From IMG/VR virus record IMGVR_UViG_3300033067_000365, positions 5,574-69,573 of that record: a stretch of 64,000 bases of DNA, one strand, 5' to 3'. Shown here piece after piece: positions 42,808 through 43,073 of this stretch. Under the pieces are notes generated by a model, which did no database searches, had not been told where the DNA came from, and saw only the letters and a program-made list of their open reading frames with translations. A program made the position numbers and the translations under genes. Position 1 is the stretch's first letter; each line of letters opens with the position of its first letter. This stretch comes from a virus. Taxonomy: Duplodnaviria; Caudoviricetes.

Positions 42808-43073
42808 TGGCATGATTCTTGCCCCTGCACCCGCTGGCATGGTTCTTGCTATTAGCAAATTCTAGGCCACGTAATAACCCCTGATGCTGGTCGAGTATTG
42901 TTGGCACGTTATTTGCTTGAGTCCAGCTGGCATAAAAATTGCTTCTGTTTTTTTTTTACTTGGCATGCTTCTTGCTTCTATTTTCTGGCATGGTTTTTGC
43001 TTGCGTCCAGCTGGCACAATTATTGCTTGTTTTCATGTTGGCATGGTTCCTGCTATTAGCAAAGTCTGTACCA
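42808..43073. promoter_or_regulatory. array of ten sigma54 (-24/-12) consensus sites
   Basis: TGGCA(C/T)N-N4-(T/C)TGC at 42808, 42835, 42902, 42928, 42961, 42986, 43012, 43039 (+); two inverted sites at 42855-42869 and 43059-43073. Confidence 0.75.

Follow-up and report, generated by a model that had tools for sequence, protein, structure and literature searches.

A sigma-54 promoter is usually pictured as a solitary switch for bacterial genes, one that is kept tightly silent until an activator acts on it. An uncultured freshwater phage carries eight to ten sites of this type packed into 266 gene-free bases beside DnaA boxes, and the question raised by this locus is what such an array might be for. 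The window analyzed here is a 64-kb stretch (bases 5574-69573) of a 69.6-kb IMG/VR contig that is 87% complete, linear, and without end repeats. Its genes include those for a long tape-measure protein, the portal, terminase, and major head proteins, ribonucleotide reductase, PhoH, a ClpP-like protease, and thymidylate synthase, as well as nine tRNAs. It also encodes a T4 Rnl1-like RNA ligase, another RNA ligase, and a DNA ligase, which lie with a phosphatase at 56416-57753 and 62034-63971; with the nine tRNAs they look like a tRNA-repair kit. In its large terminase the contig shares 87.8% identity with Limnohabitans phage DC31 and 49% with Curvibacter phage P26059A, and by this protein the nearest phages are DC31 and Pakpunavirus-like phages. 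DC31 is a lytic long-tailed phage of 37.6% GC, assembled as a circle, whose host has 59% GC (PMC12195039). Since this nearest cultured phage grows on Limnohabitans, the host of our contig is likely a freshwater member of Comamonadaceae. Sigma-54 is nearly universal in this likely host family: its DNA-binding domain (PF04552) is present in five of five Comamonadaceae-type genomes and in 191 of the 201 genomes of the Comamonadaceae genome's family (a tally that includes the unpublished genome G155).

The initial annotation of this DNA had described eight same-strand sites of the TGGCA(C/T) type, among them a perfect TGGCACG-TTAT-TTGCT at 42902. A pattern search of the 64-kb window recovers all eight, the perfect site included, as exact plus-strand matches to TGGCAY-N5-YTGC within 246 bp, and finds a single strict site outside the array, at position 1867. 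Dinucleotide shuffles of the window contain a mean of 0.49 matches and at most three, and none of 100 shuffles reached nine. The forward sites follow one another at start-to-start spacings of 27, 67, 26, 33, 25, 26, and 27 bp. The features of the array are as follows, with scores on the matrix described below.

42808 to 43053, plus strand: eight forward sigma-54-type -24/-12 sites, with 15-bp cores starting at 42808, 42835, 42902, 42928, 42961, 42986, 43012, and 43039.
42855 to 42869, minus strand: weak inverted site TGGCCTAGAATTTGC, score 11.8, convergent with the forward site at 42835 across the palindrome TTGCTATTAGCAA.
43059 to 43073, minus strand: weak inverted site TGGTACAGACTTTGC, score 12.0, convergent with the forward site at 43039.
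42902 to 43069, no strand: tandem duplication of about 84 bp (42902-42985 against 42986-43069; repeat families D4, 81%, and D5, 74%).

Scoring with an RpoN matrix had been suggested as a check. The matrix used here derives from the 29 intergenic sigma-54 sites enriched in the Salmonella ChIP-chip study of Samuels et al. (Table 3 of PMC3844500). True Salmonella sites score a mean of 19.4 (s.d. 2.9) on their own matrix. The forward sites score, in order, 11.6, 20.5, 21.7, 14.4, 15.9, 21.9, 21.3, and 19.2, which places five of the eight in the true-site range of the Salmonella matrix (19.2-21.9) and the other three at 11.6-15.9. Seven sites in the window reach a score of 15 or more, against 0.68 expected. 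The two inverted, back-to-back sites that had been reported fare less well: they do exist, across the TTGCTATTAGCAA and CTGCTATTAGCAA palindromes, but they are weaker, scoring 11.8 and 12.0 against 11.6-21.9 for the forward sites, and they are degenerate (TGGCCT... and TGGTAC...) relative to the strict forward pattern. The GG and GC doublets stand at the fixed spacing of TGGCAC-N5-TTGC in the eight exact forward sites and the two inverted near-matches alike. Judged by its sequence, the array is a member of the sigma-54 -24/-12 class and not an arbitrary repeat.

Two other places in the window resemble sigma-54 sites. The strict site at 1867 was considered as a second sigma-54 promoter and rejected, as it overlaps a strong sigma-70 promoter (TTGGCA, 18 nt, TATAAT with TG) and is probably that. 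About 55 nt after this sigma-70 promoter, within 1860-1960, a terminator hairpin is followed by the ribosome-binding site of a small gene, an arrangement that could be a small RNA or a leader/attenuator. At 37320-37338, where a plus-strand open reading frame (37288-37617) begins, there is a palindromic sigma-54-like pair, TTGCACGAATTCTGCCAA, scoring 14.5 on one strand and 11.1 on the other.

The array sits within a gene-free gap of about 850 bp (about 42555-43360) between two minus-strand gene blocks. It is taken as non-coding because gene callers disagree among relatives and because insertions and deletions disregard the reading frame. The gap contains the following further features.

42520 to 42544, minus strand: intrinsic terminator of leftward transcription (six G-C pairs and a T run), just upstream of the leftward GC-rich block.
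42599 to 42646, no strand: two to three copies of the direct repeat TGAATACYTTTGTTTCC, between the terminator and the DnaA boxes.
42661 to 42729, no strand: three perfect DnaA boxes, TTATCCACA at 42661 and TGTGGATAA at 42699 and 42721, around the palindrome CTTATATAAG.
43088 to 43157, no strand: four operator-like palindromes, TTTCAC-N3-GTGAAA, overlapping the minus-strand sigma-70-type promoter.
43121 to 43094, minus strand: sigma-70-type promoter (10/12 matches) that fires leftward through the array, head-on to the forward sites.
43248 to 43315, no strand: three copies of a GGnTTTTTGG-type repeat, which recurs as TAGGTTTTTGG in all relatives.

The orientation is as had been claimed: all genes flanking the gap are on the minus strand, and the sites point into non-coding DNA and against these leftward genes. 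The forward sites face non-coding DNA, the leftward promoter, and then, in antisense, the gene block to the right; the plus strand carries no gene for more than 1.3 kb, and the forward sites therefore serve none, again as first described. The DnaA boxes, arranged around the AT-rich palindrome CTTATATAAG, lie 80 bp from the array. Their block is the most conserved part of the gap, with 84-89% identity in Limnohabitans phage DC31 and Curvibacter phage P26059A, and it was the only part matched in a sensitive blastn search of the region against GenBank phages; megablast against the same phages returned no match. A search of 41800-44000 against Rfam gave no family at the gathering score and two sub-threshold Gut-1 matches on palindromes, and therefore no known RNA family explains the region.

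Several other features mark the borders of this region. All relatives carry three to four copies of the TAGGTTTTTGG motif (GGnTTTTTGG) at the right border of the gap, and L132 has one more within a neighboring gene; the motif may be a promoter or protein-binding site peculiar to these phages. An inverted repeat of 11 nt without mismatch, AAAATCGGCGC / GCGCCGATTTT, at 42385-42395 and 43160-43170, brackets the entire control region and the first leftward gene, which may be due to chance. To the left of the gap, a GC-rich island of small leftward genes (39900-42550) reaches 52.8% GC over 40001-42000, with a strong AT skew, in a phage of 39% GC; the corresponding stretch of L132 is also GC-rich by eye.

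We compared the gap across nine related contigs and DC31. The array is kept at the same place in four of the contigs (L132, which is an 83-kb, 100%-complete genome, L135, L137, and L140), with four to five forward sites scoring 15-22 and up to two inverted ones. In a five-genome alignment of the array, only one of the 40 core TGGCA/TGC columns is variable, against 18 of 35 columns at the inner site positions (seven per site) and 82 of 193 other non-coding columns; Fisher tests of core against inner and core against other non-coding columns give p ~1e-6 and ~1e-7. The bases that sigma-54 contacts are thus almost fixed while the rest drifts, which indicates purifying selection on the contact bases. 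Both the invariance of GG and GC amid variable spacers and the selection on the motif that had been read from it are borne out, within the array and among the five related genomes. In L132 the ortholog of the inverted site at 42855 is a better site (TGGCGCGGTTTTTGC); in L135 and L140 the TT of its -12 element is gone. The convergent pair at 43039/43059 is kept in L132, L135, and L137, and also in L133, where it represents the sole sigma-54-type sites. The terminator at 42520-42544 is conserved in the four array-bearing relatives.

More distant relatives hold fewer sites. L260 has one forward site, with a score of 23, and an inverted site whose predicted start lies ~27 nt upstream of the start codon of the first leftward gene. 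In both DC31 and L134 a single forward site falls between the DnaA boxes, and a single inverted site to the left of these boxes is aimed at the leftward operon; L262 has a single sigma-54-type site, and L264 has none in the gap. Site number can thus be arranged in a series from 0-2 (L264, L262, L260, DC31, and L134) through four to five forward sites (L137, L132, L135, and L140) to the eight of the window, where alignment with the relatives shows that the ~84-bp duplication, an extra block found in the window alone, raised the forward count from five to eight. By sequence comparison, the array looks like the amplification of a single ancestral site and, because distant relatives have 0-2 sites and some of them carry unrelated tandem repeats, it would be a lineage-specific amplification.

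To the right of the array comes a module that is hypervariable from one relative to another. The TTTCAC-N3-GTGAAA module is present in L135; L137 and L133 have TTCTGACAAT repeats instead, and L140 has an extra DnaA-box cluster. In the right module of DC31 (L009, 2770-2900) there are seven 20-bp GACTG repeats, L133 has a 25-bp tandem repeat at its contig end (reverse complement 1-150), and L140 contains five extra perfect DnaA boxes with several variants (reverse complement 7750-7900). DC31 has five DnaA boxes at the locus. The contigs of relatives often end inside the gap region.

A search of phage genomes for similar arrays had also been suggested, and such arrays turn out not to be confined to this lineage. 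A pattern of two adjacent sites matched at least 120 stretches in IMG/VR, and 119 matches were listed for bacterial genomes. Among the matches listed, clusters of three or more strict sites make up 63 of 120 viral and 13 of 119 bacterial cases, and clusters of four or more 36 of 120 and 6 of 119; these are proportions, not densities. With the window included, at least 64 viral loci have three or more sites, with GC contents from 31% to 59%, and among the matches listed they fall into at least 13 groups that share no nearby protein, the largest of which comprises 46 loci. The positions left free by the search are informative about the identity of the motif. Among the 239 distinct viral array sites in the matches listed, -27 is Y in 92%, -20 is G in 80%, -19 is R in 79%, -15 is T in 97%, -11 is W in 96%, and -10 is T in 70%. 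The same sigma-54 consensus at free positions appears in the 46 sites from 14 listed loci outside the largest group and the window's group. Together with the true-site scores on the Salmonella matrix and the conservation of the core columns among relatives, this agreement upholds the assignment of the motif to the sigma-54 type. The distance between neighboring sites in the viral arrays listed is 26-28 bp in most cases, and lesser peaks are seen at 47 and 57 bp (~2.5, 4.5, and 5.5 helical turns); because the search itself in part set the 23-29-bp range and related contigs account for many of the 47-bp cases, this phasing is no more than a hint that neighbors lie on opposite faces of the helix. 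In most of the other phages listed the arrays occupy divergent intergenic regions, and by a crude count of open reading frames they are aimed at co-directional downstream genes in 29 of 36 cases in the largest group and 8 of 14 elsewhere among the matches listed. A promoter role is therefore conceivable in general. The initial annotation knew of no described phage system of this kind, and we likewise found no description of such phage sigma-54 site arrays in the literature searched.

Cultured phages have sites of this type as well. The T5-like Vibrio phage VPT02 (L265, MN954399; 170-230 and 2500-2775) has six sigma-54-type sites scoring 14.7-23.7 in the first ~3-3.4 kb of its record. A non-coding region of 1.36 kb has a convergent pair around its DnaA boxes and CTGTATAAATATACAG palindromes, and further sites are found at record positions ~745-800 (three, 14.7-23.7) and ~2891 (one, 15.1).

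What binds the array? A motif that is universal while the phages have no protein in common suggests a binder that is universal among hosts, and its sequence is that of a sigma-54 site. From these sequence relationships, we infer that sigma-54 is the binder. The phage itself appears to supply neither the factor nor its activator. In the contig, no match to the AAA+ domain of sigma-54 activators (PF00158) attains the family cut-off, a single 11-bit sub-threshold Walker-A-type match being seen, and the 100%-complete relative G001 and four other array-bearing contigs gave no match to it; PF04552 was found in none of these six. The small neighboring genes belong to no informative family, and no protein family was found to accompany the arrays. 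One candidate was a GP88/DUF7227-type gene, which lies near the arrays in this phage, L121, and L068; a more distantly related GP88 gene lies downstream of some arrays of the largest group. DUF7227 was rejected as the binder, as the profile of the window's family matches near only 3 of the 37 listed arrays with four or more sites, and DC31, which has no array, appears from its feature table to retain a gene that corresponds in size and location. In the window, this gene (39928-40815, minus strand) ends the GC-rich island and encodes a protein with many invariant Cys/His residues. Its model has a pLDDT of 84 when alignment-based and 39 from the single sequence; Foldseek returned nothing at E 0.001 or better with this model, and the top rows of VIA-align are all radical-SAM enzymes (Z <=4.3).

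Our preferred reading, to which we assign a probability of roughly 40%, is that the array is a cis-acting loading platform of high-affinity sites for host sigma-54, alone or as RNA polymerase holoenzyme, that would act as a sink or a barrier. It would have arisen through local amplification of one ancestral site in the main non-coding control region, beside the DnaA boxes. Sigma-54 closed complexes are established to be stable, and silent without an activator (restated in PMC3844500). Because no gene lies ahead of the forward sites and the phage encodes no activator, we infer that complexes at the array mostly stay silent closed complexes, and their effect would come through occupancy. Two routes can be envisaged, and either as the selected function is speculative. 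As a sink, the array would draw sigma-54 off host promoters as phage genomes multiply. As a protein barrier, it would separate the leftward promoter and early block on the right from the DnaA boxes and GC-rich gene block on the left. Variation of site number by duplication would be expected of such a dosage-type element and is unneeded for a promoter; the DnaA box, a second host-protein site, is also amplified at the locus in relatives (DC31 and L140).

Several considerations speak against the loading platform. The unrelated tandem repeats at the same region in close relatives (DC31 and L133) suggest iteron-like behavior, and the co-directional genes that follow most arrays in other phages would fit real promoters. 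A sink would also tie up core polymerase, which the phage needs too, and by our own reasoning a spacing of 26-28 bp may be too tight for holoenzyme on every site unless neighbors lie on opposite faces of the helix. A bolder proposal holds that the array and the neighboring DnaA boxes form a DNA decoy, in which the hundreds to thousands of high-affinity sites on replicating genomes would soak up the small sigma-54 pool (and DnaA); this we regard as doubtful. If it were true, host programs under sigma-54, for example the membrane-stress, RNA-repair, nitrogen, flagellar, and pilus regulons, would be silenced, and the phage would possess a means of host takeover made of DNA alone that is widespread among uncultured phages.

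Among the alternatives, the one that survives best, though we hold it to be on the unlikely side, is that the repeats are iterons or other sites for a phage protein or a host protein distinct from sigma-54, at a DnaA-dependent origin or a partition/packaging site, with the likeness to sigma-54 sites being coincidence or mimicry. The arrangement of direct repeats beside the three DnaA boxes and a palindrome rich in AT matches that of an iteron origin, the differing tandem repeats at the same region in relatives are as expected if repeat and binder co-vary, and relatives' contigs frequently break there. Yet the extended motif recurs in at least 13 contig groups, from 31% to 59% GC, with no common nearby protein, which calls for a universal binder, and no protein family travels with the arrays (DUF7227 is near 3 of 37 arrays of four or more sites among the matches listed). 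The conserved bases are exactly those that sigma-54 contacts, including the -20 G and the -11 W, and sigma-54-type sites persist beside the other repeats in relatives instead of being displaced by them. The window also has a separate candidate iteron origin by an HTH gene, at 36600-36741. There, a 23-bp repeat (2.8 copies, 95% matches) follows a tract very rich in AT; it begins immediately past the stop codon of a small minus-strand gene of the DUF6945/HTH type (36743-37201).

Working tandem sigma-54 promoters are the next alternative, and we consider them rather unlikely. They would be fired by a host enhancer-binding protein, for example one activated by stress or nitrogen, giving a rightward non-coding or antisense RNA; as part of this same reading, such a transcript would either impede the leftward promoter (43121-43094) and the early block, or prime or activate replication at the DnaA boxes. 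The motif, matrix, and conservation evidence applies to promoters as well as to the loading platform. T7 has tandem promoters beside an origin. Most of the arrays listed from other phages lie in divergent intergenic regions and face co-directional genes, the predicted start of the inverted site in L260 is ~27 nt before the first leftward start codon, and the inverted sites of DC31 and L134 face the leftward operon. At the locus itself, however, more than 1.3 kb without a gene, and then antisense, follow the forward sites, and eight promoters at 25-27 bp would occlude one another. No activator gene was found with PF00158 in the contig or G001, and relatives manage with one or two sites. A third alternative likens the entire 850-bp gap to the T5 iss, as a place of injection stop or DNA anchoring at which DnaA and sigma-54 polymerase would seize the entering DNA; we consider it very improbable. 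The injection role first proposed for the array would draw on this likeness. In its favor, the iss of T5 is long and untranslated and contains repeats, palindromes, and eight DnaA boxes (10.1101/866236), and in VPT02 two strong convergent sigma-54-type sites (scores 21 and 23) flank the DnaA boxes of the 1.36-kb left-end non-coding region. Against it, T5 lacks a sigma-54-type site in its first 12 kb, DC31 was assembled as a circle, and the DnaA model of the T5 iss is itself a proposal.

The array lacks two attributes of an ordinary promoter, a downstream gene and an activator encoded alongside it. As a phage cis-element it appears to be an undescribed variant, yet one that is not unique to the window. 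Dense, selected arrays on lytic phages without activators, here with no gene to switch, suggest that the stability of the closed complex can be put to uses beyond gene expression, with factor titration, a barrier, an anchor, and a stress-triggered switch as the candidates. Should the arrays prove to be ordinary promoters fired by host activators, they would reveal that phage regulation includes a layer, hardly studied so far, that senses the state of the host. E. coli sigma-54 should recognize the array sites, which makes the idea directly testable, and cultured systems with sites are available in DC31 on Limnohabitans (two single sites) and the Vibrio phage VPT02 (about six).

How does the array compare with known systems? 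It resembles bacterial sigma-54 promoters and non-productive sites (glnAp2, pspA, and hypA; PMC3844500) in its two-block motif, with invariant GG and GC one helical turn apart, in the -20 G, the T-rich stretch before TTGC, and the A/T at -11, and in scores equal to those of enriched sites. The intragenic sigma-54 sites of Salmonella offer a parallel that makes binding without a gene to serve conceivable. Bacterial sites are single, whereas the array has 8-10 copies in 266 bp, on a lytic phage without an activator, and its forward sites point away from every gene. The T5 iss is a long untranslated region between gene blocks with DnaA boxes, direct repeats, and palindromes (preprint 10.1101/866236), and the gap is comparable, as it too is long and untranslated and has several DnaA boxes along with repeats and palindromes. 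It differs in that T5 is without sigma-54-type sites (first 12 kb), and the phage is no relative of T5 by its large terminase.

In iteron origins, such as P1 oriR and those of plasmids, DnaA boxes and direct repeats occur together, and the repeats are bound by a replicon-specific initiator. The array region is similar in its direct repeats beside DnaA boxes and an AT-rich palindrome and in its change of copy number by duplication. It differs in that its repeat is common to unrelated phages and is a site for a host sigma factor by its sequence, in having no adjacent initiator gene, and in a spacing of ~26 bp against the ~22 bp of iterons. We know of no DNA decoy described for a sigma factor, and none was found in the literature searched. 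Titration elements for other host factors are familiar, however, in the datA locus of E. coli for DnaA and in 6S RNA for the sigma-70 holoenzyme. The logic proposed for the array would by analogy be theirs, with clustered high-affinity sites or mimics keeping a host factor off its normal targets.
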